A stretch of 58,966 nt of DNA from Bordetella parapertussis (GCA_945875935.1 CAMCNE010000001.1:1-58966); one strand, 5' to 3'; positions 12,295-58,312 are shown, numbered from the stretch's first letter. Made by a program: numbers and translations. Notes: generated by a model from the letters alone, not told the origin.

Positions 12295-12399
12295 GGGGTG
12301 TTGAATCCTTGCGTTGTTCGCGGGTCGAGGCGCCCGCAGCCTGTTGTCAAATTACTCGCTTGTCGGTGGCGCCGCGCGCCCGAACCTGAACTGTCCCGC

Positions 12400-13938: not shown

Positions 13939-14137
13939 GGAGCCCCGAAGGGCGTGGTCTGAAAAGACAGAGGCGGGGCGAGAGGTCGGACTGACAGGAA
14001 AGACCGCTGCGATTTATCAAAGTGAGGATATCTCGAAGACCTATCGCGAGCACCTCATAGAACCCCGGGGGGACCTCGGTAGTCAGCCTCAGCGAATACC
14101 TGAATGCGAGATTGCTGAATTAGGGGTACTGCGACGT

Positions 14138-36683: not shown

Positions 36684-36941
36684 GCCTCGTACCTCCGTGA
36701 GCCCGTGTCGGGAAGAAGCCCGACGGGCTGTGACGCTCGCGGCGACGAACATCATCGTTCGAAGCCACTGGCTTGGCAGACCATATGGGGTCGGCTGCCG
36801 TGCGGCGCAACTCAAAATCCACTCGTTGATTGGGATCCAGGCTGGAGAAAAACCCAAGCCTCATCCAGCGAGCGGGATTCTAGGAATCAAAAATATAACC
36901 GGTCAACCTTTAGCTGGCCGCACTTAACTACTTATGTGTCT

Positions 36942-38528: not shown

Positions 38529-38726
38529 TCCGGGTCACCCGAAGCAGCGCGGCCAGGAAATGGCGGCGGGCTTGGAAAACACAGCACAATCCCCGGCTCG
38601 CTTACCGCACTGCCGCGGGGTCAGGGATGGCCCCACATTGAACGGCGTGCGAGCCATTCCCAAACGGGGCCTTTTCAGCGCAAGTTGTTGCTCTGGGAGG
38701 CTGCCCACACATGAGGGTGTTGCTGG

Positions 38727-40235: not shown

Positions 40236-40264
40236 TCAATACTTCTAGAAAACATGGGAGAGAA

Positions 40265-41437: not shown

Positions 41438-41734
41438 AAGTGGCTCAGCCGTCCGAATTGCGGCCGGACCCTGAGGCCGCTCTGAGGCGGCCCTGCGCTC
41501 CAATCGTCCGGAATCGAAACACTTTAGGCCTGAATTACCGGGGATTTCCCCAGTAAGTTTCAGTCCGTTGCAACGTACATTGCTCACTCTCAGCAAAGAG
41601 TCATCGCTCGATTTGCGTCCTTGGGGGACGTGCTTCAGGCGTATCACATTGGGTGATTGCTTCGCACCTTTTGCCTAGCGATCTGCTCATCCAGCATCCC
41701 TCCCACGCCAGACGCTATACAGATATCAAGGCCT

Positions 41735-43768
41735 ATGCCGCACACCAGCCAGATTTTCTCGCACCCGGAAAATGACGACCGTGTCAGTTCGACATGGGAG
41801 AAGTTTTTGAGTGGAGAGGTTTGCGGGTCAGATGCGCTGCGCCGGTTGATCGATGACTCTTGGCGCCGCTGTCAGACGGCGGATGTGGATCCCGAGCGAG
41901 ACAAAGCACCTCCTCCGCTCGCTGAAGAGCCCTTGCAGCGCCTGCTCGAGGAGCACGACGAGTTGTTGTCAGCGGGAACACCCGTGATGGCACACGCCCG
42001 CCAGTTTCTGGATGAAACCGGGACTGTGATGGTGTTGACCACGCACGACGGCGTTATTCTTAACCTCGAGGGGGACCCTTCTACCTCCGCTGCGGCCGCT
42101 GAACGTATTCGCATGCTTCCTGGAAGCAGCTGGAGCGAGGCCGCCTGTGGCACCAACGCAATTGGTACGGCGCTGGCTATAGGGCAACCGGTCCAGATTC
42201 ACTCTGCTGAGCACTACTGCGCGGGTATCAAGAGATGGACTTGTTCGGCCACGGTCGTCAGAGACCCCTACGACAACAGCATACTTGGCGTCGTTGACGT
42301 TTCTGGCCTGAATTCGACCTACAACAGGCACAGCTTGGCGCTGGTGGTGACCACGGCAAGCCGGATCGAGAGCCGTCTGGCGCGCCGCGAAATGGAGTTG
42401 CGATACAGGCTGCTTGACTTGTGCGTGTCCCGCGTGGGCGGCACCACATCAGACGGAATCATCTTGCTGGACCGACGCGGCAATCCCATCAAGGCGTCTG
42501 ATCGCGCGCAGACTGCGTTGAACGCGCTGAGCGCCAACGGACGAATGGCGGCGCCTATTGAGTTGTCCAAACTGAAGATTCCTGCATCTTTCAAGGGTGA
42601 TTTGAGGGCAGGCCTTCCCGACTGGATCAACCATGATTGGCTTGAACCGATTGTCGACAACGGACAGAAAATTGGCTCGATTCTGACGATTCCCAACCGT
42701 GGATTGCAGATTGGACCTCGCCGTAGCGAAGCCATTCTCGTGAAGAGTTCCGGCGTCAAAAATCAACACTTTGCGCGGGTCATTGGCAAGTCACCCAAGT
42801 TGCTCGAAGCCGTGGACTGCGCCCAAAGGCTTGCAAAGTCCAACGTCCCAATACTTCTGCTCGGAGAAACAGGTGTAGGCAAGGACGTATTTGCCAATGC
42901 AATTCATGCCACGAGCATCACCACGGGTGAGGCCCCATTTGTCGCCTTGAATTGCGGCGCATTTTCTCGAGAACTCCTGACCAGCGAGTTATTTGGTTAC
43001 GCCGAAGGATCCTTCACCGGCGCACGCCGCGGGGGAATGATGGGGAAGATTGAGGCTGCAAGCGGCGGCACCTTGTTTCTTGATGAAATCGGCGAGATGC
43101 CACTCGATTTGCAGCCTCATTTCCTCAGGGTGCTGGAAGATGGTGCGATATTCAGGGTAGGAGAGAACAAGGCGCGCAACGTTTCCTTCCGACTTCTGGC
43201 TGCAACCAATAAAGACCTTCGAAAAGAAGTCTCCGAGGGGCGTTTTCGAATGGATCTTTATTACAGAATCGCAGTTGCAGCGATCAACATTCCCCCCCTT
43301 CGGGAGAGATCTGAAGATATTCAAGCGATTTCAGAGTACTTTCTAGAAAAACTGTCAGCAAGGCATGGCCTTCAAAGGCAGAGTTTAGATGGCGAGGCTA
43401 TCGAAATTTTGAATCGCCACGACTGGCAGGGTAACGTAAGAGAGTTGCGTAACGTGCTCGAGCGAGCGATGCTGATGTCCACCGGGCCTGTACTGACAAA
43501 AGATTCTCTACCAGAAGAAGTGCGAAAATCTTTTGTGATAGATTCAATTAAGACCAATTCGGTAAGTTTGCGATTGGACATGAAGAGTCTTGAGCAAGTG
43601 GAGAAAGATGCAATCATTTCAATGATCGAACGGCTGGGCGGAAATATGACGGCCGTCGCCAGAGAGTTGGGGATTGCCAAAAGTACCTTGTATGTGAAAC
43701 TGAAAAAGTTTGACATTTCTACACATGCTGCTGAGGATCAGGCCTCGGCCATGCCCGCGCAGTTCTGA
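41735..43768 (+). CDS. acxR: Sigma-54-dependent transcriptional activator, AcoR/AcxR type
   Basis: Start at MPHTSQ. N-terminal AcoR-like sensory region, AAA+ core ([16 protein letters not shown] loop, ELRNVLERA), and a C-terminal Fis-type HTH ([19 protein letters not shown]). Confidence 0.85.
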
Positions 43769-44024: not shown

Positions 44025-44786
44025 GTGCAGTTGATCGGAGTCGGGTTCGTGTCAAGTAAAAAGTCGTCTAATTATTCTCTCACCTCAACATTACTAAAGG
44101 GTTTCCGTAAAGCAGCCGTTGATAATGCCCGTGAGTTGCAATACGAGGCAGCCTTGCTGTTGTCAAACAACCATTATTCCAGGGCGTATTTCTTGGCCTC
44201 GGCCTGTATTGAGGAGATCGGTAAGGCCGTTCAAGCCTTTGATGCACTCGGGCGCAATGTTCGGGATCCTGAGGTCTCGACCCGGGTCAGGTTGAACTTT
44301 CAAGACTATTCAAAGAAGGTTGCTGCTGCCGCTTTTCCTTGGCTGCTCAATGATCCGAACTGTCGAGATGAGGTGTCGGCATTTATCGAGTCTTTGATAG
44401 AGTCGAAAAACGCCAGCGAACCCGCTTTGTTCGTTGGCATTGAACCTCAGGGAATGAAACTACACGCGCCATCTGCGGATGTCTCCAAGGAGTCCGCGGA
44501 GGAGTGTGTCCAGATGGCGAGAAACATTTTCGCTCATGCCTCTCTTCATGTCCTTGACGCACACCAGAAGGTTCGAACCAAGGCAGAGGATGATTTTTTT
44601 GTGATGAAGCCGTCTTCCATCCTAAACGTTTCGAGCGGAGCGGATTTTTGGCAGTACTACATTGCTTGCATGAAATCTGGTGACTCGGCATTCGAGGCTG
44701 CATTGATGGACTACACGCAAAAATATCTAGCCAAAAATGAGAGGTATGGGGGTCTAGGAGTTCGGGGTCTAGGTGACCCTCTTTGA
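44025..44786 (+). CDS. AbiV-like HEPN-domain protein (putative abortive-infection/defence gene); start uncertain (GTG 44025 or 44049)
   Basis: N-terminal pattern NARELQYEAALLLSNNHYSRAYFLASACIEEIGKAV resembles the AbiV family helix pair ending in EE-GK. The gene and its flanks are A+T-rich. Confidence 0.45.
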   Translation: MQLIGVGFVSSKKSSNYSLTSTLLKGFRKAAVDNARELQYEAALLLSNNHYSRAYFLASACIEEIGKAVQAFDALGRNVRDPEVSTRVRLNFQDYSKKVAAAAFPWLLNDPNCRDEVSAFIESLIESKNASEPALFVGIEPQGMKLHAPSADVSKESAEECVQMARNIFAHASLHVLDAHQKVRTKAEDDFFVMKPSSILNVSSGADFWQYYIACMKSGDSAFEAALMDYTQKYLAKNERYGGLGVRGLGDPL

Positions 44787-44869
44787 GTTTTTGTATTTGA
44801 ATGTTGAAAAATAAAAAATTAACTTGATGTGGTGTTTTGTTTAAAAATAAATTTAGAAAGGTTATGCCA

Positions 44870-45499
44870 ATGAAAATCTATGACTGGGCCGCGGCGCCCA
44901 ATCCGAAACGACTGCGCATGTTTCTCGTCGAGAAGGGGTTGAACATTGAAATTGTTCAGGTGTCTGGAGATGCGCTGCGGTTGCGTCCAGACTATGTTGC
45001 AAAGTTCCCTCAGGCCATGGTGCCCATGCTAGAGCTGGATGACGGTCGCCAGATTGGCGAGTCGATTGCAATTTGCCGTTACTTCGAAGAGTTGTATCCG
45101 AACCCACCTATGCTCGGGCGTGATCCTTACGAGCGTGCCATCGTCGACATGTGGGAGCGGCTTGCCTTCGACGAGGGAATGATGGCAGCTGGTGAGGTGT
45201 TTAGAAACACGGCGGAGGCCTTCAAGGATCGTGGTTTGCCTGGCTTTGCCGTGCCTGTGCCGCAAATTCCTGCGCTGATCGAACGCGGCAAGATGCGCCT
45301 TGCTCACTTCTTCACCAAGTTCGACAAGCAGCTGGGCAAGAACCGCTTTATCGCTGGTGACCAGTTCACCCTTGCCGACTGCACCTTGTATTGCAGCATT
45401 GAATTTGCAGGCTGGACGGACATCAAAATTCCGGACAACTGCAAGAACCTCCTGCGTTGGCAAGAGGAAGTGAGTGCTCGGCCCAGCGCGAAAGCCTGA
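44870..45499 (+). CDS. Glutathione S-transferase
   Basis: Thioredoxin-like N-domain (MVPMLELDDGRQIGESIAICRYFEE) and a helical C-domain. GAAAGG lies 8 nt upstream of ATG 44870. Confidence 0.8.
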   Translation: MKIYDWAAAPNPKRLRMFLVEKGLNIEIVQVSGDALRLRPDYVAKFPQAMVPMLELDDGRQIGESIAICRYFEELYPNPPMLGRDPYERAIVDMWERLAFDEGMMAAGEVFRNTAEAFKDRGLPGFAVPVPQIPALIERGKMRLAHFFTKFDKQLGKNRFIAGDQFTLADCTLYCSIEFAGWTDIKIPDNCKNLLRWQEEVSARPSAKA

Positions 45500-45670: not shown

Positions 45671-45686
45671 TGGCATCGACCTTGCA
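45671..45686 (+). promoter_or_regulatory. Sigma-54 (-24/-12) promoter of the acxABC operon
   Basis: TGGCATCGACCTTGCA against the consensus TGGCAC-N5-TTGCW, about 100 nt upstream of the acxA ATG. A sigma-54 activator gene is nearby. Confidence 0.65.
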
Positions 45687-45785
45687 GTTAGGTGGGTGTT
45701 CGGTCCTTGATGGATCGTTCGGTAATTTCGGGCCCCTCGGGGCCATTGGCGTAGACCATATTGTTTTTTTAATGGAGACGTGGAG

Positions 45786-47933
45786 ATGACAACGGAAAAT
45801 TCGTCGGTTCAGGTGCTTGGCATTGATGCCGGCGGCACCATGACCGACACATTCTTTGTTCGTGCTGACGGGCGGTTTGTGGTCGGTAAGGCGCAGAGCA
45901 ACCCTGCAGATGAGTCGCTGGCGATCTACAACTCCTCAGTGGACGCCTTGGCCCACTGGGGTCGTAAGGTCGATGATGTGTATCCCGAACTGGTGACGTG
46001 TGTCTATTCCGGCACCGCCATGCTGAATCGCGTGTTGCAGCGCAAGGGCCTCGACGTGGGTCTGATGTGCAATCGCGGTTTCGAGCAGAACCACTCGATG
46101 GGTCGTGCTCTGCAAAGCTACCTCGGCTACGCTCTTGAAGATCGTATCCACCTGAACACTCACCGCTACGACGATCCTCTGGTGCCTATTCATCGCACCC
46201 GTGGCGTTGCAGAGCGTACTGACGTTCAAGGCAAGGTAGTGATTCCTTTGCGCGAGGACGAAGTCCGCGTCGCAACCAAGGAGTTGGTCGACGCTGGCTC
46301 CAAGGCCATCGTGATCTGCCTGCTTCAGTCGCACAAGAACGGCACCAGCGAAACCCGCTGCCGCGACATCGTCAAGGAAGAGCTCAAGAAGATGGGTGTT
46401 GATATTCCTGTGTTCGCGTCGGTAGATTACTACCCGCAGCGTAAGGAAAGCCACCGCATGAACACGACGATTCTGGAAGCCTATGGCGCAGAACCGTCGC
46501 GTGCAACCCTCAAGCTCGTCGCTGATCGCTTCAAGAAGCATGGCGCCAAGTTTGCACTGCGCGTGATGGCCACGCACGGCGGCACCATCAGCTGGCAGGC
46601 CAAGGAACTGGCCCGTACCATCGTGTCCGGCCCAATCGGTGGCGTGATCGGCTCGAAGATGCTCGGCGAAGCACTCGGCGACGAGAACATTGCTTGCTCC
46701 GACATCGGCGGCACCAGCTTTGACGTGGCACTGATCACCAAGGGTAACTTTGCGATCAAGTCTGACCCTGACATGGCTCGTCTGGTTCTGTCGCTGCCTC
46801 TGGTGGCCATGGACTCCGTCGGTGCAGGTGCGGGTAGCTTCATCCGTATCGATCCGTACTCGAAGTCGATCAAGCTCGGACCTGACAGCGCAGGCTACCG
46901 CGTCGGTACCTGCTGGCCAGACAGCGGTCTGACCACCTGCACGGTGTCTGACTGCCACGTGATCCTGGGTTACCTGAACCCGAACAACTTCCTCGGCGGC
47001 GCCATCAAGTTGGATGTTCAACGCGCTCGTGACCACATCAAGGCACAAGTTGCTGATCCTCTGGGCCTGTCGGTTGAAGACGCAGCAGCTGGCGTGATCG
47101 AGTTGCTGGACCTGACCTTGTCGGAATACATCCGCGCCAACATCTCGGCTCGCGGCTACAACCCGATCGAGTTCACCTGCTTCTCGTACGGTGGCGCTGG
47201 TCCAGTTCACACCTACGGTTACACGCAAGGCGTGGGCTTCAAGGACGTCGTGGTTCCAGCTTGGGCTGCAGGCTTCTCGGCCTTCGGCTGCGCATGCGCT
47301 GACTTCGAGTATCGCTACGACAAGTCTGTTGACCTGGGCTTGCCTGAACTCGCACCGGACGCTGACAAGGCTGCCGCCTGCAAGACGCTGCAAGCTGCTT
47401 GGGAAACGCTGGCAGAAAAGGTGGTTGAAGAGTTCGTGATCAACGGTTTCGGCCGTAAAGACGTTCTGTTGATCCCTGGCTACAAGATGCAGTACATGGG
47501 CCAGCTGAACGACCTCGAGATCATCTCGCCTGTCGCCAACGCTGCCACGGCTGCTGACTGGAACAAGATCGTCGAAGCCTTCGAAAACACCTACGGCCGC
47601 GTTTATGCTAACTCGGCTCGTTCACCAGAACTGGGATATTCGATCACCGGCGCCATCATGCGCGGTACCGTGGCGACTCAAAAGCCAGTGCTGCCAGAAG
47701 ATAAGGACGAAGGTCCTACGCCTCCAGCAGATGCACGCCTCGGCACCCGTCCTTTCTATCGCAAGAAGAAGTGGGTTGATGCAGTGATCTACAAGATGGA
47801 ATCGCTCAAGGCAGGTAATCACATCACCGGCCCCGCGATCATCGAGTCTGATGCGACCACCTTCGTCGTGCCTGAAGGTTTTGCGACCCGCGTTGACAAG
47901 CACCGCCTGTTCCACCTCATTGAAATCAAGTAA
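45786..47933 (+). CDS. acxA: Acetone carboxylase-type beta subunit (hydantoinase A/oxoprolinase family)
   Basis: 715 aa from ATG 45786 (GGAGA 7 nt upstream). LGIDAGGTMTDTF ATPase motif. Size and position match AcxA. Confidence 0.85.
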   Translation: MTTENSSVQVLGIDAGGTMTDTFFVRADGRFVVGKAQSNPADESLAIYNSSVDALAHWGRKVDDVYPELVTCVYSGTAMLNRVLQRKGLDVGLMCNRGFEQNHSMGRALQSYLGYALEDRIHLNTHRYDDPLVPIHRTRGVAERTDVQGKVVIPLREDEVRVATKELVDAGSKAIVICLLQSHKNGTSETRCRDIVKEELKKMGVDIPVFASVDYYPQRKESHRMNTTILEAYGAEPSRATLKLVADRFKKHGAKFALRVMATHGGTISWQAKELARTIVSGPIGGVIGSKMLGEALGDENIACSDIGGTSFDVALITKGNFAIKSDPDMARLVLSLPLVAMDSVGAGAGSFIRIDPYSKSIKLGPDSAGYRVGTCWPDSGLTTCTVSDCHVILGYLNPNNFLGGAIKLDVQRARDHIKAQVADPLGLSVEDAAAGVIELLDLTLSEYIRANISARGYNPIEFTCFSYGGAGPVHTYGYTQGVGFKDVVVPAWAAGFSAFGCACADFEYRYDKSVDLGLPELAPDADKAAACKTLQAAWETLAEKVVEEFVINGFGRKDVLLIPGYKMQYMGQLNDLEIISPVANAATAADWNKIVEAFENTYGRVYANSARSPELGYSITGAIMRGTVATQKPVLPEDKDEGPTPPADARLGTRPFYRKKKWVDAVIYKMESLKAGNHITGPAIIESDATTFVVPEGFATRVDKHRLFHLIEIK

Positions 47934-47945
47934 GGAGAAACAACC

Positions 47946-50270
47946 ATGAACATGATGAGCAACAAGGAAGTTGGTTTTGCCGATCTCTTGAAGAACGGCA
48001 AGTCCCTCAAGCAGCACCGTGACGAGATCCTTGCGAGGACGGCGTCGACGGGCCACTACAACGGTCTGACCAAGCTGGCTTTCCGTGACCGTGACCCTAT
48101 CAGCTACGAGAAGCTGTTCTCGAAGCTGCGCGGTGGTCTGGTTCACGCTCGTGAAACCGCCAAGAAGATCGCAGCAAGCCCTATCGTTGAGCAAGAAGGC
48201 GAACTGTGCTTCACGCTGTACAACGAAGTCGGCGACTGCGTGCTGACCTCGACCGGCATCATCATCCACTGCGGAACGATGGGCGCTGCGATCAAGTACA
48301 TGTGCGAAAACAACTGGGAATCCAACCCAGGCATCGCTGACGGTGACATGTTCACCAACAACGATTGCGCCATCGGCAATGTGCACCCCTGCGACATCCA
48401 GACGATCGTTCCGGTCTTCCATGAAGGCCGTCTGATCAGCTGGGTGGGCGGCGTGACTCACGTGATCGACACCGGTGCAGTAACTCCTGGTTCGATGAAC
48501 ACCGGACAAGTCTCGCGTTTTGGCGACGGCTACATGATCACCTGCCGCAAGACTGGTGTGAATGACGTTTGCCTGCGCGACTGGTTGCATGAGAGCCAGC
48601 GTTCGGTCCGTACGCCAAAGTACTGGATCCTGGACGAGAAGACCCGCATCGCTGGCTGCCACATGATCCGTGAGCTCGTTCACGAAGTCATCGCTGCTGA
48701 CGGTATCGAAGCATATGAGGCCTTCTGCGCGGAAGTGATCGAAGAGGGTCGTCAAGGCCTGATCATGCGCATCAAGGCCATGTGCATTCCTGGCGTTTAT
48801 CGCAAGGTCGCTTTCGTTGACGTGCCATATGCGCACGAAGACGTGGGTGTGTCTTCGAAGTTCGCCAAGCTTGACTGCATCATGCACTCGCCTGTCGAAA
48901 TGACGATCTACAAGACCGGCAAGTGGCGTCTTGACTTTGAGGGTGCAAGCCGTTGGGGCTGGCACACTTTCAACGCTCACCACGTCGCTTTCACCAGCGG
49001 CCTGTGGGTGGCGATGTGCCAAACCCTCGTTCCTACCCAGCGTATCAATGACGGCGCTTACCTCGCGACCGAATTGCATATGCCTAAGGGCACTTGGTGC
49101 AATCCGGACGACCGTCGCACGGGTCACGCCTACGCTTGGCACTTCCTGGTGTCGGGTTGGTCTGCACTGTGGCGCGGTCTGAGCCAGTCGTACTACAGCC
49201 GTGGCTACCTCGAAGAAACCAACGCGGGTAACGCCAACACCTCTAACTGGCTGCAAGGCGGCGGTATCAACCAAGACGGCGAAATCCACGCTGTGAACAG
49301 CTTCGAGGCTTCGTCTTGCGGTACCGGTGCTTGCGCACTCAAAGACGGTCTCAACCACGCTGCAGCCATCTGGAACCCAGAAGGCGACATGGGCGACGTC
49401 GAGATCTGGGAAATGGCTGAGCCTCTCCTGTACCTCGGCCGTAACGTCAAGGCCAATTCGGGTGGCTACGGCAAGTACCGCGGTGGCTGCGGTTTCGAGA
49501 CCCTGCGGATGGTCTGGAACTCGCAAGACTGGTCGATGTTCTTCATGGGCAACGGCTACATGAACAGCGACTGGGGTCTGATGGGCGGTTACCCATCGGC
49601 AACTGGCTATCGTTTCGAAGCTCACAAGACCGGTCTCGAGCGTCGCATCGCCAACGGCGAGCCGATTCCTCTGGGCGCCGACTTGGATCCTACCGCCAAG
49701 ATCTACGAGCAGAGCATCGACGCAACGGCAGTCGTCAAGCGCGACCAACAGTGCATCACGACCGAAGAATGCTATGCGAACCATGACCTGTACCTGAACT
49801 ACCTCCGTGGTGGCCCAGGCTTCGGGGATCCTTTGACGCGTGACCCGAAGTCCGTCGAAAGCGACCTGAACCAGAAGTTCTTGCTGGTTGAGTTTGCTCG
49901 CAAGGTCTACGGTGCTGTCGTCACGCAAGATGCCAAGGGCGTCTATCACGTTGATGCCGCTGCAACCCAAGCCCGCCGCGCAGAAATCCGCAAGGAGCGT
50001 ATCGCTCGTTCGGTTCCAACCCGCGAGTGGATGAAGGAAGAGCGTAACCGCATCATCAACAAGCATGCTTCGCAAGCAGTTCAGCACATGTTCGCGACCA
50101 GCTTGGCCTTGTCCGAAAAGTGGACCACGAAGTTCCGTACGTTCTGGGATCTGCCTGCCGACTGGCAACTGCTCGAGACCGAGCTGGGCATTCCTTCGTA
50201 CGGCTCGAAGTTCCGTATGGACCTGTCCTTGATGCCTGACGTTCGCACCGTTGTTCAGGTTGAAGAGTAA
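47946..50270 (+). CDS. acxB: Acetone carboxylase-type alpha subunit (hydantoinase B family)
   Basis: 774 aa with an AGGAG Shine-Dalgarno. Hydantoinase B-like throughout. Lies between acxA and acxC. Confidence 0.85.
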   Translation: MNMMSNKEVGFADLLKNGKSLKQHRDEILARTASTGHYNGLTKLAFRDRDPISYEKLFSKLRGGLVHARETAKKIAASPIVEQEGELCFTLYNEVGDCVLTSTGIIIHCGTMGAAIKYMCENNWESNPGIADGDMFTNNDCAIGNVHPCDIQTIVPVFHEGRLISWVGGVTHVIDTGAVTPGSMNTGQVSRFGDGYMITCRKTGVNDVCLRDWLHESQRSVRTPKYWILDEKTRIAGCHMIRELVHEVIAADGIEAYEAFCAEVIEEGRQGLIMRIKAMCIPGVYRKVAFVDVPYAHEDVGVSSKFAKLDCIMHSPVEMTIYKTGKWRLDFEGASRWGWHTFNAHHVAFTSGLWVAMCQTLVPTQRINDGAYLATELHMPKGTWCNPDDRRTGHAYAWHFLVSGWSALWRGLSQSYYSRGYLEETNAGNANTSNWLQGGGINQDGEIHAVNSFEASSCGTGACALKDGLNHAAAIWNPEGDMGDVEIWEMAEPLLYLGRNVKANSGGYGKYRGGCGFETLRMVWNSQDWSMFFMGNGYMNSDWGLMGGYPSATGYRFEAHKTGLERRIANGEPIPLGADLDPTAKIYEQSIDATAVVKRDQQCITTEECYANHDLYLNYLRGGPGFGDPLTRDPKSVESDLNQKFLLVEFARKVYGAVVTQDAKGVYHVDAAATQARRAEIRKERIARSVPTREWMKEERNRIINKHASQAVQHMFATSLALSEKWTTKFRTFWDLPADWQLLETELGIPSYGSKFRMDLSLMPDVRTVVQVEE

Positions 50271-50313
50271 TCTTCAACTTATCAGCAACGATTCCGTAAA
50301 TTTGGAGATTTAG

Positions 50314-50820
50314 ATGTCGACTTACACTCAAGAACAAGTCAATAACATGGTAGCGGGAACGCTCGATTGGGATACGACTTTCCGCATGTTGTCTATGCCG
50401 AAGGACGCAGACCGATTTTCCATGTACCTGCACACGCTGCAGGCTAACGTGACTTTCCCTGACAAGATCGTGCTTCCGCTTTCGCCGCACATGTACATCG
50501 TGCAATCGGTGAAGACGAAGAAGTGGATCGTCAAGTGCGATTGTGGCCATGAGTTTTGCGGCTACAAGGAAAACTGGAAGCTGTTTGCGAACATTTACGT
50601 TCGTGATAACGCTGAGGCAATGGCTGAGGTGTATCCTAAGTTCATGGCTCCAGATACGAACTGGCAGGTTTATCGCGAGTACTATTGCCCAAGCTGCGGC
50701 GTCATGCATGACGTCGAGGCACCGGTGCCTTGGTACCCTGTGATTCACGACTTCGAGCCCGATATCGATACGTTCTACAAGGAATGGGTCAATCTGCCTA
50801 TGCCTGAACGAGCTGATTGA
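50314..50820 (+). CDS. acxC: Acetone carboxylase-type gamma subunit
   Basis: 168 aa. Cys/His cluster KCDCGHEFC...CPSCG is typical of the zinc-binding gamma subunit. Confidence 0.85.
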   Translation: MSTYTQEQVNNMVAGTLDWDTTFRMLSMPKDADRFSMYLHTLQANVTFPDKIVLPLSPHMYIVQSVKTKKWIVKCDCGHEFCGYKENWKLFANIYVRDNAEAMAEVYPKFMAPDTNWQVYREYYCPSCGVMHDVEAPVPWYPVIHDFEPDIDTFYKEWVNLPMPERAD

Positions 50821-50861
50821 TTTAGTGTTCGGATGCCTGTTCGTGAGAGCGGGCATCCAAG

Positions 50862-50899
50862 GCACGGCTGGAGTATTCCGGCCGTGCTTTTTTTGTTTT
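50862..50899 (+). terminator. Rho-independent terminator after acxC
   Basis: gcacggc...gccgtgc stem followed by TTTTTTTGTTTT. A second hairpin, ggatgcc...ggcatcc, lies at 50831-50858. Confidence 0.65.
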
Positions 50900-51028
50900 A
50901 ACAAAGCCTCGAGAAGAAGGTGGTTTTCTTGGTTAGTCTGTACTGGTAAATCAAATATTTTTTGATCTGAGCCATTCAATATAGTTGGCACAACGCGAAA
51001 TGCGAATGGCCACATAAAGGAGACAACG

Positions 51029-52036
51029 GTGGTAGAGAAATCAAAGAGTGGTTTGTCGAGGGTTTTAAATTTCATCCCTCAGGTGATGCCGATTATTATT
51101 ATCGGCGGACTTCTTTATGCTGGCTTTTTCGTGAAAGCAGAAGCGGTCATCACGAAGGTGGAACCCAAGGCGATTGAGCGCCGAGACAATTTCATCAGTG
51201 TGGCTGCGCCATCCGAACAAGTCGCGTGGGCAGCGGGCACTGCCGGCAAGGTAGTCCGCACCGAAGATGGAGGAAAGACTTGGGTCGCTCAGAAAACGAA
51301 GACGCTCGAAAATCTTCAGGGCCTCGCCGCCTTTGACGATAAAAATGCGATCGTGGTCGGCAATCACAGCCTGATTCTCTACACCACAGACGGCGGCGCG
51401 ACTTGGAATCAGGCAACGCAGCCCACCCCACCGAAGCCCGAAATCAGCAAGTTGTTCCGGGTTCAGATTGCTGGTAACACTGTCTGGGCCGTAGGTGAGT
51501 ACAACACGCTCCTGCGTTCGGACGACAAAGGCGTGACCTGGACTCGTGTGCTTCCAGAGATGGACCGCAATCTGAACACCATCGCGTTCGCCGGGGACGT
51601 GGGCATCATCTTCGGAGAAGCTGGGCTGACCCTGCGCTCAACCGATGGTGGCGCAACTTGGGAGGAGATCAAGGTCGACAACATGGTCAGCCTGATGAAC
51701 GTGGCCTTCCGTGACGACAAGCATGGGGTTGCCGTTGGGCTGACTGGAACCATGATGACCACCGAAGATGCAGGCATGACCTGGGTGGCGATGCCTAACG
51801 CGACCGACGAGCACTTGCTCAACGTGCGCTGGGAAGGTGATCAGTGGTTTGCCGTTGGTGACAAAGGCGTCGTCGTGACCTCGAATGCCGAAGCCAAGGA
51901 ATGGAAGGCAGGCAAGATCTTTGAGGGCGATGTTGCGTGGAGGACACAAATGGTAAAGCAGGGTCCACGCTACTACGTTGTCGGAGCGAATCTGGCTATC
52001 CTCGAAGGTGGAAAGCTTGCCGTCGCTGGTCGTTGA
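51029..52036 (+). CDS. Membrane-anchored Ycf48/BNR (Asp-box) beta-propeller protein
   Basis: GTG start with AGGAG 7 nt upstream. One N-terminal transmembrane segment. Five S/TxDxGxTW boxes (TEDGGKTW, TTDGGATW, SDDKGVTW, STDGGATW, TEDAGMTW). Confidence 0.75.
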   Translation: MVEKSKSGLSRVLNFIPQVMPIIIIGGLLYAGFFVKAEAVITKVEPKAIERRDNFISVAAPSEQVAWAAGTAGKVVRTEDGGKTWVAQKTKTLENLQGLAAFDDKNAIVVGNHSLILYTTDGGATWNQATQPTPPKPEISKLFRVQIAGNTVWAVGEYNTLLRSDDKGVTWTRVLPEMDRNLNTIAFAGDVGIIFGEAGLTLRSTDGGATWEEIKVDNMVSLMNVAFRDDKHGVAVGLTGTMMTTEDAGMTWVAMPNATDEHLLNVRWEGDQWFAVGDKGVVVTSNAEAKEWKAGKIFEGDVAWRTQMVKQGPRYYVVGANLAILEGGKLAVAGR

Positions 52037-52063
52037 AGTGACTGCAAAAATCCGGAGACAAAA

Positions 52064-54448
52064 TTGAAAAATACAACATTCAGCAAAGTTCATAGGGCGT
52101 TCTCGTGGTTCATAGACCACCGAATGATGTTGATTGCACTGATCCTGCTCGCAACGGCCGCTATGGGTTACATGGCGAGCAAGGTTGAGGTCAAGACGAT
52201 CTTCAGTGACCTGCTTCCAAAGACCCACCCTTATGTGAAGGTCAACCAGCAATTCAAGTCCACCTTTGGCGGCTCGAACCTGGTGACCATCATGGTCGAG
52301 AATCAAAAGGGCGAGATTTTCGACCTGAAGGTTCTTGAGGCTGTCCAGAAGTTGACCGTTGGCATGCAGCAGGTCAATGGAATTGACACCTACCAGATCA
52401 TTTCGCTGGCTTCCAAGAAGATCAAGGAGATTCGCGCGTCCACGGAAGGGGTGGAATCCAAGCCCATCATGTGGCCGCGGCTGCCTGAAGGGCCTGAGCA
52501 AATGGCGAAACTGAGGGCAGCGGTCCTCAACAACCCGCTCGTTTATGGTCCCTATGTGTCACTGGACCTGAAGGCAACGCTGATTACGGCCGATTTCCGC
52601 GATGGCGAAATCGACTACACAAAAGCCTTCAACGAGATCATGGCGCAGATCGAGGAGGTCAAAAAAGGCGCTGACGGCGTCACGATTCGTGTTGTGGGTG
52701 AGCCGGTTCTGTATGGCTGGGTGAATTTTTACCTTGACGAAACCATCAAGATCTTCTTTGGGGCCATTTGCTCACTGTTCATTATCTTGCTGGTCATCAC
52801 CCGCACTTGGCATGGCACGTTCCTGCCCTTGGTTGCGGGAGCCATCAGCGCCATCTGGGCGCTGGGTGCGGCAAAGCTGATGGGTTTCCATCTTGACCCG
52901 CTGGTGATCGTGGTGGCCTTCTTGATCACAGCGCAGGCCGTTTCTAACTCAGTCCAGTTGATTTCGCGTTACGACGACGAAATTGCCGCAGGAGCGAAAA
53001 CCTCAAAAGAAGCGGCTGTTGCGAGTGCTGAGAATCTGTTCAAACCCAGTATGTTGGCAATCGTTGCTGACGCTGGATGTGTGCTGGTGGTGGCTTTGAC
53101 CCCCATTCCCATGCTGGAGAAGATTTCCTACATTGGCACGGTTTGGATCTTCTCCATCATCATCAGTGCGTTGATTCTCACTCCCGTCTTGTTGTCATTT
53201 GTCAAGCCTAAGACGCATTTCGTTCATCCGATCAATGTTCGGCCGCTTCTTGACAGCATCCTGGGAGTTAGCGCAAGTTTGGTGACCTCCTCTGCGCGCT
53301 TCGTCGTTCTGGGTTTGACGGTTCTGGTCTTTATTGGCACAGGCTGGTATGCGTTCAACCTGAAGGTGGGTGATGCCAACCCGGGGTCACCGATCTTGTG
53401 GCCTGATTCGTCTTACAACACCGACGCATCCGAAATCAATCGCCAGTTCCAGGGTTCGGACCGGATGTTCGTGGTCGTGGCGGGCAACCAGAACGGTTCG
53501 CTGCGTGAGCCGGAAGTGCTGCAAAGCATGACCAACTTCCAGCGTTATATGGAAGCCCAGCCGGAGGTCGGTGGCAGCGTTTCTGTGGCAGACATCTTGC
53601 CGCAGGTTCGTCGTGTGCTTCGCGAGGGCAATCCGATGTACGCCGAGCTCGGCGCGACATCTGACGAAAACAGCGAACTGACCTACATCTTCGTGGCGGG
53701 TTCAGACCCAGGCGACATGGATCGCTACGCGGATGCTTTCGCGAAGAACGGCGCGGTCACACTGTTCTTCCGTGATCACCAAGGCGACACGATCAGCACT
53801 GCTATTGCTCGTGTGCAGGCTTACGTGAATGCTCCGGAAAACCAACTCAAGAACGCGCAGTACATGCTTGCGGGTGGTCTGGTTGGCGTTCTGGCAGCGG
53901 TGAACGAGGTGATTCTGGCGGGTCAGATTGAAGCCATTGCTCTCGCCTTGCTGGTGCTTGTGGTGTGCTGCACGTTCACTTATCGCTCGATGGTTGCGGG
54001 TGTGTTCTTCATGATTCCGGTCATGTTGTCGAACACCATCACCTTCAGCTACATGGCGTGGGCGGGCATCGGCATGAACATCAACACCTTGCCGGTGGTG
54101 GCGCTGGGTATTGGCTTGGGTGTGGACTACACGTTCTACATCGTTGACGGTATCCGCGAAGAACTCCACCACTCGTCCGACGTCGAGGCAGCGATTCTGA
54201 AGGCGCTGCGCAGTTCCGGACGAGGTGTGATGGTCACAGCCATCACGCTGGTTGGCAGCGTGGGTCTGTGGGCGTTTTCGTCGGTTCGTCTGCAAGCAGA
54301 CATGGGCTTTTTGATTGCCTTGTGGCTGTCGATCTCGGCGTTCAGTGCGCTGTTCATCATGCCGGCAATCGTTTATGTGTTCCGTCCTGCGTTCGTGGTG
54401 GGTGATGAAGATCATCCCATCGAGCAGGCGAAACCAGTGGGTGTGTGA
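52064..54448 (+). CDS. RND/MMPL-family transporter
   Basis: TTG start with GGAG 6 nt upstream. 794 aa with two hydrophobic clusters (about aa 230-400 and 620-790), each preceded by a large soluble loop. Confidence 0.75.
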   Translation: MKNTTFSKVHRAFSWFIDHRMMLIALILLATAAMGYMASKVEVKTIFSDLLPKTHPYVKVNQQFKSTFGGSNLVTIMVENQKGEIFDLKVLEAVQKLTVGMQQVNGIDTYQIISLASKKIKEIRASTEGVESKPIMWPRLPEGPEQMAKLRAAVLNNPLVYGPYVSLDLKATLITADFRDGEIDYTKAFNEIMAQIEEVKKGADGVTIRVVGEPVLYGWVNFYLDETIKIFFGAICSLFIILLVITRTWHGTFLPLVAGAISAIWALGAAKLMGFHLDPLVIVVAFLITAQAVSNSVQLISRYDDEIAAGAKTSKEAAVASAENLFKPSMLAIVADAGCVLVVALTPIPMLEKISYIGTVWIFSIIISALILTPVLLSFVKPKTHFVHPINVRPLLDSILGVSASLVTSSARFVVLGLTVLVFIGTGWYAFNLKVGDANPGSPILWPDSSYNTDASEINRQFQGSDRMFVVVAGNQNGSLREPEVLQSMTNFQRYMEAQPEVGGSVSVADILPQVRRVLREGNPMYAELGATSDENSELTYIFVAGSDPGDMDRYADAFAKNGAVTLFFRDHQGDTISTAIARVQAYVNAPENQLKNAQYMLAGGLVGVLAAVNEVILAGQIEAIALALLVLVVCCTFTYRSMVAGVFFMIPVMLSNTITFSYMAWAGIGMNINTLPVVALGIGLGVDYTFYIVDGIREELHHSSDVEAAILKALRSSGRGVMVTAITLVGSVGLWAFSSVRLQADMGFLIALWLSISAFSALFIMPAIVYVFRPAFVVGDEDHPIEQAKPVGV

Positions 54449-54539
54449 AGGTCGCCTCTTGCTTGTTGGCTCCGGTTTACGCCGGGCCAACAGGTGAGGG
54501 GTGTTGGTTAGTGGTGGTATCAACGGAAGGAATGGAGAC

Positions 54540-56432
54540 ATGAAAATAGAAAAGAGCTTCAAGCGGGCCATCCCTGGCCTCGCCGCGGCAGCAGCCCTCG
54601 CAATGGGTCTGCCTGTTGCACACGCCGCGGACGCCGCAGGCGCTGGTGATTTCAAGTTCGCTTTGTCGGGTTATGCGCGTGCTTGGGTTTCGATCAACCT
54701 TGAAAACCAAGGTGAGTTCAAGCCAAACAATGGTCTGCACAACGGTGTCGGTTGCCCAGTGGGCGCGACAACTGGCGGTACCGGCGGTGGCGGTGCTTGC
54801 GCAGGACCCTACGCAGCGAACAGCTTGGCCAATCAAGCTTTCGCTCCGAACAATAACAAGCAGAGCAACGTGACGGGTACCGCCGACGGCGCGACCCTGG
54901 TACCCAACAACGCCGGGTATGCCGCCAGCGACTACAACTCGAAGTACAAGCCTTCGATGATTCGCGGTTCGATCTTGCTGGACGGTGATGCGTCTTACAT
55001 GGGCTTGAAGTTCAAGGCCATCGCTCGCCTTGATCGTGAATACAAGACCGACTACCTCGAAGAGCTCGAGGACCTGCGCAAGGCCAACTTGTCAGGCAAT
55101 GGCTCCAGCCCTTTTGGATACAACGACGGCAAGTTGAATCCAAGCAGCATCATGGACAACTACAACAACTTCGACTTTCGCGAGTTCTGGGTTGAAGCGC
55201 CGATCGGTGACCGCACCACGGTCAAGATCGGCCGTCAGCAGATCGTCTGGGGCGAGTCCGACTTCTTCCACGCCATGGATGTGGTGCACGGCTACGACTT
55301 GAGCTGGCGTCTGTTCTTTGAGGGCGAGAACGAAGAGTGGCGCAAGCCGCTGATCTTGATCTCGACCAAGATCCGCATCCCCGAAGCCGATGGCATGCTG
55401 GCTGCGTACATCCGTCCAGGCTGGGACCGATGCCAAGACATCGGCAACACCTATGACGTGAACGGTGGCCGCTGGTTCTTCAACCCTTATCGTGGTTACA
55501 CGCTCGAAACGACCACGAAAAAGGATTGCTCGCAAGAGAATTGGGACGAGAGCAACATCGGTGGCGGTATTCGCTGGCAGGGTGAGGCGTTCGATCTGAG
55601 CTACTCCATCGCCTATCTGCACGCAAATTCCGCAGATCCGGTGGCCAACCCGAATCCGAACGTGACAGGTGCTGCCACTGGCTACAAGGGTTCGCAGGTT
55701 CAAGGTTCAATCTTTGACCGAATCCACCCAGAAATCGACGTGATTGGCGTGACGCTCAGCGGTTACTCGGCGATGATGGATGCAGTGATCAGTACCGAGG
55801 TGGCTTACACCTTCAATCAGCCGTTCAACCAAGGAACTGGCGGTTTCTTTGGCTATGCGGGCAACCCAGATGATCCTTTCGCTGGTGCACAAAATTGCCC
55901 GACAGGTTCGCTTGGGTCAGGTGTTGGCTTTGACGTAGCCGGGGTTTCTCCCGGCGTCGGCCTTTGCGGTATCAAGACCAAGGGCGTGATCAACTCGATG
56001 CTGCGCATCGACAAGAACCTGAGCCTCGAAGACACCTTGGGCACCTCACGCCCTTCGTTCTCGTCGATTCAGTTGTTCGACCAGTGGGTCATGGACTGGA
56101 AGGACTCTGAGCAGTTGGTTCGTTTGTTCGCCTACGGCACGCCGCTGAAGGAGCACAACACGATCCTGACCGCATTCACCGTGCTGAACTACATGAACGA
56201 CAAGATCAACCCGAGCTTTGTGGTTGGCTTCGACATCAACAACGGTGGCGGTTTCGCGATTCCAGCAGTGGCATTCACCTTGAACGACAACTGGGTCGGC
56301 AAGATTGAGGCTGACATCTTCTGGAGCGGTGGTCGCACCGAGAACGCGCAGTTCTCGAACGAGCGTTCACAGCTGTTTGGCTATTTCGACAAGTCCACAC
56401 AGCTGGTTTTCCGTCTGACACGTCAATTCTGA
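54540..56432 (+). CDS. DUF1302-family predicted outer-membrane protein
   Basis: Start at MKIEKSF with a signal peptide ending AHA. KIGRQQIVWGESDFFHAMD signature and an aromatic C-terminal residue (…LTRQF). Confidence 0.75.
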   Translation: MKIEKSFKRAIPGLAAAAALAMGLPVAHAADAAGAGDFKFALSGYARAWVSINLENQGEFKPNNGLHNGVGCPVGATTGGTGGGGACAGPYAANSLANQAFAPNNNKQSNVTGTADGATLVPNNAGYAASDYNSKYKPSMIRGSILLDGDASYMGLKFKAIARLDREYKTDYLEELEDLRKANLSGNGSSPFGYNDGKLNPSSIMDNYNNFDFREFWVEAPIGDRTTVKIGRQQIVWGESDFFHAMDVVHGYDLSWRLFFEGENEEWRKPLILISTKIRIPEADGMLAAYIRPGWDRCQDIGNTYDVNGGRWFFNPYRGYTLETTTKKDCSQENWDESNIGGGIRWQGEAFDLSYSIAYLHANSADPVANPNPNVTGAATGYKGSQVQGSIFDRIHPEIDVIGVTLSGYSAMMDAVISTEVAYTFNQPFNQGTGGFFGYAGNPDDPFAGAQNCPTGSLGSGVGFDVAGVSPGVGLCGIKTKGVINSMLRIDKNLSLEDTLGTSRPSFSSIQLFDQWVMDWKDSEQLVRLFAYGTPLKEHNTILTAFTVLNYMNDKINPSFVVGFDINNGGGFAIPAVAFTLNDNWVGKIEADIFWSGGRTENAQFSNERSQLFGYFDKSTQLVFRLTRQF

Positions 56433-56450
56433 TCAAAAGGAGTATTTCAA

Positions 56451-57776
56451 ATGACTATTGAGACCAATGGTATGGATCGCCGCGACGTTTTGCGCGCTGG
56501 CGTGGCAGGTGCTGCTGCTGTAGCAACCGGCTTGGCTTCTACGCCTGCAATGGCGAAGGAACTGGCTGCCGGCTTCATCATCAACAAAGAAAACTACGAC
56601 AGCATCAAGGGCGACACGTTCGAGGGCAAGACCATCGCTTCGATGGTTCCCGAGAAGCTTGAGTGGATGATCAAGAACTACAACACCACCATCAAGTTGG
56701 CCAACTCGAAGAAAATCGAGATGGACAAGAAGTACATGCAAGCCACCAAGGAAGGCGCGCCCAACGTCAAGTTCAACCCGGCTGACCGCACGGTCTCGGG
56801 TTGGAAGGCAGGCATGCTCTTCTGGCCAAACGAAGTGGACCCGAAGGACCCCAACGCAGCCGACAAGCTGCTGTGGAACCTGCGCGCCGCAACGTACGGC
56901 GCCACCATGGACCTGCGCGACATCGCCTGGGCTTTCCTGGACGCCAAGACGGGCTATGAGCGCGTTCAGGCATTCCAGTCACGCCGCTACTACATGGAAG
57001 GCCGTCTGGACGGCGGTCCAGTGACGGTTGGCGACGGCACCATCTCGCAAAAGACCTACTTCGTGGCCATCTACCCGCAAGACATTCGCGGTCTGGGCCT
57101 GTTCTCGGTGCGTTACAACCAGCCTGACTCGAAGAAGCCAGATGACTCGTACGCTTACCTGAAGTCAGTTCGCCGCGTTCGTCGCCTGTCGGGCGGCGCT
57201 TGGATGGACCCAATCGGTGGTACCGACCAGCTGTATGACGACTGGGACATCTGGGACGCTGCTCCTACGAAGTACAAGTCGAACAAGCTCTTGTCACGCC
57301 GCTGGATTCTGGCCATTGCTCACAGCCCAGAAATCAGCGTTGACCTGAAGTTCCCGTTCACCGAGCCAGCCAAGCGTTTCCCACGCATCGGTATCACGAT
57401 TCCTCCTCACTTCAACCCAGCACCGGACGTGGGTTGGGAGCCACGTGAAGTGTTCGAAATCGAAGGCGTTTGCCCAGACGAGCACCCATACAGCAAGAAG
57501 ACCGTGTACATGGAATGTGATTTCCCACGTCCATACCTCGGCTTCTCGCTGGACCGCAAGGGCGAATTCTGGAAGATGTTCATTTTCCAGAACCGTCCGG
57601 ACGTTGGCGACGACGGCTACAACGCTGTGATGCCTGTGCTGGGTCACATCATCGACGTCAAGCGCGGCCACGCCACCAACTGGTCTTCGAACATGAAGTC
57701 CAATCCAAAGGGCGTCACGGAACAGATGGTTTCCCTGAACGTTCTGGAAGAAGTTGCTACCGGTACCGGTCAGTAA
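56451..57776 (+). CDS. DUF1329-family (LolA-like) periplasmic protein with a twin-arginine signal
   Basis: MDRRDVLRAGVAGAAAVATGLASTPAMA Tat-type signal. YAYLKSVRRVRRLSGGAWMDPIGGTDQLYDDWD matches the DUF1329 core signature. Confidence 0.75.
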   Translation: MTIETNGMDRRDVLRAGVAGAAAVATGLASTPAMAKELAAGFIINKENYDSIKGDTFEGKTIASMVPEKLEWMIKNYNTTIKLANSKKIEMDKKYMQATKEGAPNVKFNPADRTVSGWKAGMLFWPNEVDPKDPNAADKLLWNLRAATYGATMDLRDIAWAFLDAKTGYERVQAFQSRRYYMEGRLDGGPVTVGDGTISQKTYFVAIYPQDIRGLGLFSVRYNQPDSKKPDDSYAYLKSVRRVRRLSGGAWMDPIGGTDQLYDDWDIWDAAPTKYKSNKLLSRRWILAIAHSPEISVDLKFPFTEPAKRFPRIGITIPPHFNPAPDVGWEPREVFEIEGVCPDEHPYSKKTVYMECDFPRPYLGFSLDRKGEFWKMFIFQNRPDVGDDGYNAVMPVLGHIIDVKRGHATNWSSNMKSNPKGVTEQMVSLNVLEEVATGTGQ

Positions 57777-57823
57777 TAAGACAGGCCTGGCCTGATCTGT
57801 TGGTGCGTTGAACAGACGCACCG

Positions 57824-57865
57824 GCCCGCCACGGCTTCATGCGGTGGCGGGCTTTTTTATTTTTG
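57824..57865 (+). terminator. Rho-independent terminator after the DUF1329 gene
   Basis: gcccgccac...gtggcgggc stem followed by TTTTTTATTTTT. It is preceded by a second hairpin, ggtgcgt...acgcacc. Confidence 0.7.
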
Positions 57866-57976
57866 CGGTTCCATTGGATTTCATCGAGCTGATCGATGAC
57901 CCACTCGGACATGAGGGCCAAAACGCCCCGTGCACCGAGGCTTGAAAATCAAAACCCTCTCATTCAGGAGTTACTG

Positions 57977-58312
57977 ATGTACACGAAGAAATTCCACACT
58001 CAATCTCTCGACTGGCTGCCCAGCGGCATCGATGGAGTGACCTACAAGACCGTCGACGGCGACATGACTGCCGGCAAGTCTGTGGTGATTTATCACTTTG
58101 ACGCAGGGTCCGTGGTGCCAGCGCATTCGCATACGCACTCAGACGAACTGGCCTACGTGATCGATGGCGATTTCATCGAAGACGGTGTGACCTATCACGC
58201 TGGTTCCATGTTTGCCGCGCCAGCGGGCACGGTTCACGGAGAACACCGCACTGCCACAGGCTGCACGGTGATGTTTGTGCTGTCGGACACGCTGGATTTC
58301 GTCACGGCCTGA
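57977..58312 (+). CDS. Small cupin-domain protein (ChrR-like cupin)
   Basis: Start at MYTKKF with CAGGAG upstream. Cupin motifs PAHSHTHSDELAYVIDG...GTVHGEH. Confidence 0.6.
   Translation: MYTKKFHTQSLDWLPSGIDGVTYKTVDGDMTAGKSVVIYHFDAGSVVPAHSHTHSDELAYVIDGDFIEDGVTYHAGSMFAAPAGTVHGEHRTATGCTVMFVLSDTLDFVTA

Follow-up and report, generated by a model that had tools for sequence, protein, structure and literature searches.

In a 58,966-nt stretch of Bordetella parapertussis DNA (GCA_945875935.1 CAMCNE010000001.1:1-58966; the window, one strand read 5' to 3'), four genes at 51029-57776 stand directly after acxABC, the genes of an acetone carboxylase, and encode a Ycf48-like beta-propeller, a permease of the resistance-nodulation-division (RND) type, a DUF1302 outer-membrane barrel and a DUF1329 periplasmic protein. 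Cassettes of this type have already been described and are widespread in Proteobacteria, where they appear repeatedly in islands for hydrocarbon and aromatic degradation; what is newly documented here is the conserved link of one sub-group of them to ketone catabolism. Literature searches returned no report joining acx genes to a DUF1302/DUF1329/propeller/RND cassette. One tight clade is tied to three ketone pathways that have no enzymatic relation to one another (acetone carboxylase, a carboxylase resembling acetophenone carboxylase, and a Baeyer-Villiger monooxygenase with a hydrolase), which restricts the cargo to a definite group of inexpensive test compounds. The value of the result is that it makes the question of what the cassette carries directly testable. 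We read the module, tentatively and as a proposal just short of probable, as a four-component envelope transporter of the AmeABCD type that would work outward on ketones.

Linkage of the module to ketone catabolism

The window itself matches contigs of metagenome-assembled genomes from uncultured Burkholderiales. We surveyed module neighbourhoods in one genome per species, taking DUF1329 relatives at least 60% identical to that of the window; this yielded 80 loci, each with up to 10 kb on either side, and mapping the window proteins onto them resulted in three clades. Clade A shares 71-95% DUF1329 identity with the window and its propeller-first gene order, and in 23 of its 26 full-module loci the genes immediately upstream are acxA, acxB and acxC (72-92% identity). 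The acx-linked hosts are members of Methyloversatilis, Aromatoleum and Azoarcus, together with uncultured Rhodocyclaceae and Burkholderiales. The A. tolulyticum module is flanked by acxABC on one side and, on the other, by the genes for acetoacetyl-coenzyme A (CoA) synthetase, a CoA-transferase and AcxR. The exceptions are three Methylibium loci without acx, in which a GMC oxidoreductase lies upstream and, in two of the three (L018 and L020), a Phenol_MetA_deg outer-membrane protein lies downstream. An earlier note on this DNA, made from the sequence alone, had taken the position after acxC to be meaningful, and the survey bears this out, with the linkage recurring in at least 23 other genomes from several genera.

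The other two clades are joined to ketone enzymes of different kinds. In 17 of the 19 clade B loci (66-71% identity) the module adjoins a carboxylase of four to five subunits whose nearest match is acetophenone carboxylase, at scores far under the equivalog cut-offs; in Aquariibacter, a Baeyer-Villiger monooxygenase and a hydrolase take the place of the carboxylase. The third clade is gammaproteobacterial (60-63% identity) and has the gene order of ame, described below. Two Neptuniibacter loci in it carry a type I Baeyer-Villiger monooxygenase, which scores 458 bits against phenylacetone monooxygenase, accompanied by an alpha/beta hydrolase and a sigma-54 activator. One further locus carries the Apc-like carboxylase, and in another the neighbours are Zn-alcohol dehydrogenases together with a thiolase and a 3-oxoacid CoA-transferase. 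AcxR-type sigma-54 activators adjoin the module in all three clades.

Since the three neighbouring enzyme systems have neither chemistry nor products in common and share only a ketone substrate, these gene neighbourhoods strongly suggest a module role that would most simply be tied to ketones and not to the carboxylase reaction. The earlier proposal that the module moves a hydrophobic or ketone-related compound fits these comparative data, while the single conduit drawn with it, and any direction of movement, stay conjectural. Among the hosts to which the survey points, Methyloversatilis universalis, Aromatoleum species and Neptuniibacter are cultured and genetically tractable; M. universalis FAM5 and A. 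tolulyticum (L032 and L041) have the gene arrangement of the window.

The Apc-like enzyme resembles a ketone carboxylase and recurs across loci. At L057 (14085-20925) it comprises ApcA-, ApcB-, ApcC- and ApcD-like subunits, and it is also found in L058, L060, L069, L077 and L079, with partial copies in about 12 more loci; its proteins are 68-94% identical across Zoogloea, Aromatoleum, Azoarcus, Ampullimonas and Rhodocyclaceae metagenome-assembled genomes. The L067 copy includes an extra 286-aa open reading frame (ORF) with no NCBIfam match and no Pfam match on record.

Families, topology and predicted folds of the four proteins

The four genes are contiguous and co-directional on the + strand, with gaps of 27, 91 and 18 nt exactly as the earlier note had claimed. 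Gene 1 (51029-52036, GTG start) encodes a membrane-anchored, AmeC-like BNR propeller of 335 aa; gene 2 (52064-54448, TTG start) an AmeD-like RND permease of MMPL and putatively HAE3 type, 794 aa long; gene 3 (54540-56432, ATG start) an AmeA-like DUF1302 barrel of 630 aa; and gene 4 (56451-57776, ATG start) an AmeB-like DUF1329 protein of LolA fold, 441 aa long. Gene 2 has an alternative ATG at 52127, a shorter 773-aa start chosen by some gene callers, and gene 3 an alternative GTG at 54501 that would give 643 aa. Shine-Dalgarno sites precede all four starts (AAGGAG, GGAGA, GGAATGGAG with its GGAG core, and AAGGAG, in gene order); the first three had been noticed before and the fourth is added here.

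Families were called by Pfam profile search, and all four proteins exceed the Pfam gathering scores; together with the fold searches this makes the family assignments, which agree with those first made by eye, close to certain. Gene 1 belongs to PSII_BNR (PF14870, 107 bits) and matches the solved Ycf48 propellers 5OJP and 2XBG at E ~1e-20. Its single hydrophobic segment is N-terminal, and it has five Asp boxes (TEDGGKTW, TTDGGATW, SDDKGVTW, STDGGATW and TEDAGMTW), of which about 0.01 would be expected by chance in 335 aa, a rough estimate that assumes uniform residue frequencies.

Gene 2 belongs to MMPL (PF03176, 109 bits), and its best NCBIfam match is HAE3 (TIGR00921) at 146 bits, under the model cut-off of 352. 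It has the RND layout of 12 transmembrane segments arranged 1+5 / 1+5 with two large loops, and its nearest solved structures are MmpL5, MmpL4, HpnN and MmpL3. In the C-terminal transmembrane bundle, GVDY aligns with the proton-relay GADY of MmpL5; reading the sequence by eye, we saw no second Asp-Tyr in the N-terminal bundle. The first transmembrane bundle (residues 261-386) weakly matches NPC1-related sterol transporters.

Gene 3 scores 72 bits against DUF1302 (PF06980; cut-off 23) and encodes a protein with a cleavable signal peptide (...VAHA/AD), no transmembrane segment, the motif GRQQIVWGE and a C terminus ending ...TRQF, with a terminal Phe. A sequence search of the PDB gave no match to it. 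Its AlphaFold2 model (predicted local distance difference test, pLDDT, 70) is a barrel with ~18 long strands, for which Foldseek returns the major outer-membrane protein MOMP, OmpF/OmpC and AlgE at probability 1.0 and template-modelling scores of 0.5-0.57. The protein also carries two Gly/Asn/Ala-rich insertions, at ~54723-54944 (~73 aa, including GATTGGTGGGGACAG) and ~55875-55967 (~24 aa), both of which are absent from the nearest genome relatives, L007, L009 and L010. DUF1302 identity is 61-63% in these three; the other module proteins of L007 are 91% (BNR), 93% (RND) and 95% (DUF1329) identical, and the RND protein of L009 89%. The first insertion is disordered in the model, insertion-bearing variants of ~630 aa occur in metagenomes, and both insertions are probably hypervariable surface loops.

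Gene 4 matches DUF1329 (PF07044) at 164 bits and LolA_like at 31 bits, and its protein contains RRVRRL, has a cleavable signal peptide and lacks both a lipobox Cys and a transmembrane segment. In the AlphaFold2 model (pLDDT 66), the most conserved segment (residues 211-273) is of low confidence; the top Foldseek matches are LolA3 (9TP6), 3BK5, the DUF1329 crystal structure 4Z48 and 3BUU, followed by RseB and MucB. The signal peptide (56451-56560) contains a twin arginine (DRRDVLRAG...AMA/KE), which is confined to close relatives of the window, the other orthologues having ordinary Sec-type signals. Twin-arginine translocation (Tat) as a trait of the DUF1329 family was accordingly rejected, the Pfam TAT_signal match also lying under its cut-off.

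Every motif and topological feature first read from the sequence (the five Asp boxes, the single anchor, the RND layout, GRQQIVWGE, the terminal Phe and RRVRRL) is thus present, and the trans-envelope layout of inner-membrane pump, periplasmic LolA-like protein and outer-membrane barrel is upheld.

Known relatives, and the proposed cargo and direction of transport

The closest described counterpart is AmeABCD of Castellaniella defragrans 65Phen, made up of a DUF1302 protein, a LolA-like DUF1329 protein, a COG4447/Ycf48-like protein and an HAE3 RND protein (Puentes-Cala & Harder 2018, PMC6394551). Our comparison with it is one of family composition and gene layout and not of the Ame protein sequences: both sets have the same four families in contiguous, co-directional genes within a catabolic island, and the AmeD permease (~790 aa, 12 transmembrane segments, HAE3-type) has a putative counterpart in the 794-aa, 12-segment product of gene 2. 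The order differs, being DUF1302-DUF1329-propeller-RND in ame and propeller-RND-DUF1302-DUF1329 in the window; both orders are found among the relatives with at least 60% DUF1329 identity, that of the window also in Aromatoleum. The setting differs as well, with monoterpene genes around ameABCD and acetone carboxylase beside the window module. Growth with a monoterpene induces the Ame proteins. Both an ameB transposon mutant and an ameABCD deletion strain do poorly with monoterpene hydrocarbons; the deletion strain is also less tolerant of these compounds and accumulates more Nile Red, and the authors proposed a four-part exporter (PMC6394551).

Randomly barcoded transposon sequencing (RB-TnSeq) places these four families in one co-fitness group in Shewanella, Kangiella and Pseudomonas (10.1101/072470; 10.1101/2020.07.04.188060), and pleiotropic phenotypes in Shewanella and P. 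stutzeri led Price et al. to propose "export of a cell wall component" (10.1101/072470). The families behave as one genetic unit in S. amazonensis (Sama_1588-1591), in Kangiella and in P. stutzeri, P. fluorescens and P. putida (PP_0765/0766 and PP_2018/2019). The set is split over two loci in Pseudomonas and is one block in the window. The Pseudomonas set appears to be housekeeping or pleiotropic, or to serve fatty esters, and has LuxR- or AraC-type regulators, in contrast to the sigma-54/AcxR ketone cluster of the window. AlphaFold co-folding of the P. putida proteins predicted DUF1302-DUF1329 and DUF1329-propeller-RND complexes, with a suggested role in substrate transport (PMC10866462), and a 2026 study, which described an 18-stranded barrel and a DUF1302-DUF1329 interface predicted template-modelling score (ipTM) of 0.84, remarks that no structure or direct functional test exists (PMC13499233). 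The earlier description of the module as uncharacterised therefore holds in that no cargo has been demonstrated biochemically, and gives way in view of the AmeABCD phenotypes, the RB-TnSeq co-fitness and the published co-folding.

Further related clusters are found beside phenol hydroxylase genes in Zoogloea and among the highly expressed proteins of an anaerobic benzene degrader, and DUF1302 and DUF1329 proteins occur in the outer-membrane vesicles (nanopods) of Delftia. In Aromatoleum aromaticum EbN1, ebA326-ebA335 (~6.5 kb; PMC4630880) reportedly form a putative "efflux" cluster in the p-ethylphenol / p-hydroxyacetophenone regulon, next to catabolic genes of an aromatic ketone pathway, which is said to be substrate-induced and controlled by the sigma-54 activator EtpR; it is like the window module in size and regulatory logic and is a candidate member of the four families.

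Better-studied envelope systems resemble the module in part. The MmpL/HpnN exporters (8ZKP, 6WU0, 7NVH), which move cargo from the inner membrane to a periplasmic acceptor, share with gene 2 the MMPL architecture and the proton-relay Asp-Tyr of the C-terminal bundle, but the match is remote (E 1e-12 to 1e-8) and confined to the C-terminal half, and the window has no MmpS, its partners being a propeller, a LolA-fold protein and a barrel. HAE1 pumps (AcrAB-TolC, TtgGHI, SrpABC) are likewise trans-envelope and proton-driven, and some of them protect against solvents and have their genes among catabolic ones. Among the four module products, however, we found no match to the HlyD/MFP or OEP families that define such tripartite pumps; neither the periplasmic nor the outer-membrane component is related to theirs in fold, and gene 3 is a monomeric-type barrel resembling porins and AlgE, not TolC. 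With the Lol pathway only the fold is held in common, as the motor here is an RND protein and not the LolCDE ATP-binding cassette (ABC) transporter, and DUF1329 is about twice the size of LolA.

We suggest that the RND/MMPL permease of gene 2 would be the proton-driven motor in the inner membrane, with the membrane-anchored Ycf48-like propeller of gene 1 as its partner. Cargo would pass to the soluble periplasmic LolA-fold protein of gene 4, acting as carrier or bridge, which would bring it to the outer-membrane pore presumably formed by the ~18-stranded DUF1302 barrel of gene 3. The cargo would belong to the class of the ketone substrates, that is, short- or medium-chain or otherwise hydrophobic ketones. 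The module would be expressed together with the ketone regulon, mainly because transcription from the AcxR/sigma-54 promoter of acxABC would run on into it at a damped level. It could serve as a relief valve, keeping down the burden of ketone or solvent on the membranes while the cytoplasmic enzymes use the substrate. The outward direction is weakly favoured over uptake: export would agree with the RND engine, with the exporter relatives of gene 2, which move lipids and siderophores outward, and, by analogy, with the Ame dye data.

Several observations weigh against an outward ketone transporter. Some acetone operons with very similar enzymes have no module, as in Paracoccus and in Cupriavidus pinatubonensis, whose AcxC is 80% identical, and because of this absence we regard it as an accessory to acetone carboxylase and not as a required part. 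In PLSDB, 92 plasmids carry an acxC homologue and only two carry any relative of this DUF1329, one of the two being plasmid 2 of A. aromaticum EbN1, where a paralogous module (DUF1329 37% identical, same gene order) lies inside a beta-oxidation-like cluster. In the window, a strong terminator parts acxC from gene 1, with no promoter found between them. Acetone and butanone are small, water-miscible and membrane-permeant, so that neither efflux nor facilitated uptake is obviously useful, and it is a puzzle why freely membrane-crossing acetone would need an envelope transporter. This puzzle spans all transport readings, and implies either that the cargo is a more hydrophobic ketone or that the module answers another need. 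The Ame mutant, moreover, grows normally on acetate with up to 5 mM limonene and fails with limonene as sole carbon source, a pattern that fits an uptake defect too (PMC6394551), and P. putida strains mutated in these families do not grow on either Tween 20 or butyl stearate (10.1101/2020.07.04.188060); a growth failure on poorly soluble, non-toxic esters looks more like a defect of acquisition than of detoxification.

These growth phenotypes would support an inward route, a close rival that we hold somewhat less likely, in which DUF1302 would admit hydrophobic ketones, DUF1329 would carry them and the RND/BNR pair would insert them into the inner membrane, in a hand-off resembling that from NPC2 to NPC1 among eukaryotic RND relatives. 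It would suit the embedding of the module in catabolic operons under a substrate-responsive activator, where the uptake channels TodX, XylN and AlkL are likewise sited, the likeness of the gene 3 barrel to substrate channels and AlgE, and the weak match of the first gene 2 bundle to NPC1-related proteins. The authors of Foldy proposed substrate transport (PMC10866462), and deletion of a Delftia DUF1329 gene is described, in the citation of that work in PMC13101534, as impairing growth on phenanthrene. On the other side, no inward-working bacterial RND protein is known, the nearest solved relatives of gene 2 are all exporters, the Ame mutant accumulates more Nile Red, and acetone needs no carrier. 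It is less probable again that the clade linked to ketone enzymes is devoted to acquiring volatile or hydrophobic ketones. Its RND protein would then work inward and take cargo from a LolA-fold periplasmic carrier docked on a specific outer-membrane barrel, a prokaryotic counterpart of the NPC2-to-NPC1 transfer, and this would explain why three unrelated ketone pathways recruited one machine.

The permeation puzzle is sidestepped if the cargo is not a ketone at all but an envelope lipid or outer-membrane component whose export is switched on with ketone catabolism so as to adapt the outer membrane. The cell wall proposal and pleiotropy reported by Price et al., the Delftia nanopods, the binding of lipid moieties by LolA, RseB and MucB (the fold relatives of DUF1329) and the lipid movement performed by HpnN and MmpL3 would all agree with this. 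We nevertheless judge it unlikely: the EbN1 paralogue is wired to a different catabolic cluster and related genomes hold further clade-specific copies, which favours pathway-specific cargo over one constant lipid, and three different ketone enzyme systems occur within the same close clade. That the adjacency means nothing, the module being an autonomous unit with termination of its own that stands beside acxABC by chance, is disfavoured and seems very improbable. The terminator 3' of acxC, the orthologous Methylibium modules without acx and the many acx operons without a module all speak for it; the arrangement, however, is kept in 23 of 26 loci across genera while DUF1329 identity drops to 71%, sister clades are tied to other ketone enzymes, and the Aromatoleum module is enclosed by the cluster, with acxABC on one side and the genes for acetoacetate activation on the other.

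Transcription of the module and other genes in the window

The acxABC genes (45780-50820, + strand; Pfam Hydantoinase A and B and Acetone_carb_G) encode the beta (45780-47933, +), alpha (47946-50270, +) and gamma (50314-50820, +; Acetone_carb_G, 181 bits) subunits, and the 774-aa subunit matches the alpha subunit of Xanthobacter acetone carboxylase (5M45) over its full length at 1236 bits. An AcxR-like sigma-54-dependent activator (41657-43768, +; Pfam GAF, Sigma54_activat and HTH_8) lies upstream; its homologues, 52-58% identical, flank the acx-module clusters of relatives, where they are annotated MimR_N/GAF/Sigma54_activat. All parts of an acxRABC system, namely hydantoinase A-like, hydantoinase B-like and gamma subunits and a sigma-54 activator, are therefore found in the window. 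A sigma-54 promoter-like site (TGGCATCGACCTTGCA, 45671-45686, +) lies in the intergenic region ~95 nt 5' of acxA; it has one mismatch to TGGCAC-N5-TTGCW and is the only good sigma-54 site.

Two terminators flank the module, as the earlier note had seen. The one after acxC (50859-50900, +), a terminator or attenuator, was detected by scan and consists of a hairpin with a 14-bp stem (50859-50890; fold -25.0 kcal/mol) followed by TTTTTGTTTT. The one that closes the module (57823-57865, +) was overlooked by the simple scan and consists of a hairpin at 57823-57853 (fold -29.1 kcal/mol) followed by TTTTTTATTTTT. The further claim that these fence off a self-contained unit is doubtful. The spacer between acxC and gene 1 (50821-51028 in the window) is 163-236 nt long across all 24 loci, and a scan found a hairpin with a T-run in four of the 24 (the window, L007, L013 and L040) and in none of the other 20. 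Scanning with GG-N10-GC, at up to three mismatches in the window spacer and up to two in the 23 orthologous spacers, gave no sigma-54 motif, and the 208-nt window spacer has no + strand sigma-70-like site. A TGGCAC at ~50990 was rejected as a -24 box on account of its wrong spacing to the next GC. Because no promoter was found and most spacers lack a T-run terminator, we infer from sequence that transcription of the module more likely begins at the acx promoter and reads through into it, being damped in this lineage to a lower level.

The spacers have further features. RNAfold predicts, tentatively, a small hairpin just 5' of the gene 1 Shine-Dalgarno site (50985-51014, +), with a hairpin at the matching position in ~21 of the 24 spacers, counted by eye, although the stem sequences differ; in ~21 of 24 loci, also by eye, an A-rich stretch precedes it. 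This element may serve in processing or stabilisation. A conserved RNA structure was not upheld, as RNAalifold gave no consensus on the acxC-gene 1 spacers and single-sequence z-scores were modest. The spacers also carry GC-rich hairpins 3' of acxC, and those of Aromatoleum and Methyloversatilis contain a palindrome-like core, (C)CTGCAGG(G).

Upstream of the module, the gene order is AMP-dependent ligase, thiolase, AcxR-like activator, HEPN_AbiV-like ORF, glutathione S-transferase (GST) and acxABC. The ORFs at 44025-45499 were considered as subunits of an acetoacetate CoA-transferase and rejected, as they encode the HEPN_AbiV-like protein and the GST. The former (44025-44786, +; 253 aa, HEPN_AbiV domain at 87 bits) belongs to an abortive-infection protein family and lies between the activator and GST/acxABC; in relatives, GST adjoins acxA without this ORF. 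Just 5' of the activator, 36705-41437 (+) encodes a UbiD-family decarboxylase (607 aa), the AMP-dependent ligase and the thiolase, which is of SCP-x type; of these, the ligase and the thiolase may have a part in ketone breakdown.

Downstream, a ChrR-type cupin (Cupin_7; 57896-58312, +) lies 3' of the DUF1329 gene. Methyloversatilis genomes (L017, L022, L025, L050) have a second, solitary DUF1329 paralogue, 81-84% identical and also followed by Cupin_7, which is upstream of that acx cluster in divergent orientation, so that two DUF1329 copies surround acx. At L001, past the window end (11873-14023), the genes after the cupin encode an ABC transporter that has an SBP_bac_11-type binding protein, and then polyphosphate kinase and exopolyphosphatase.

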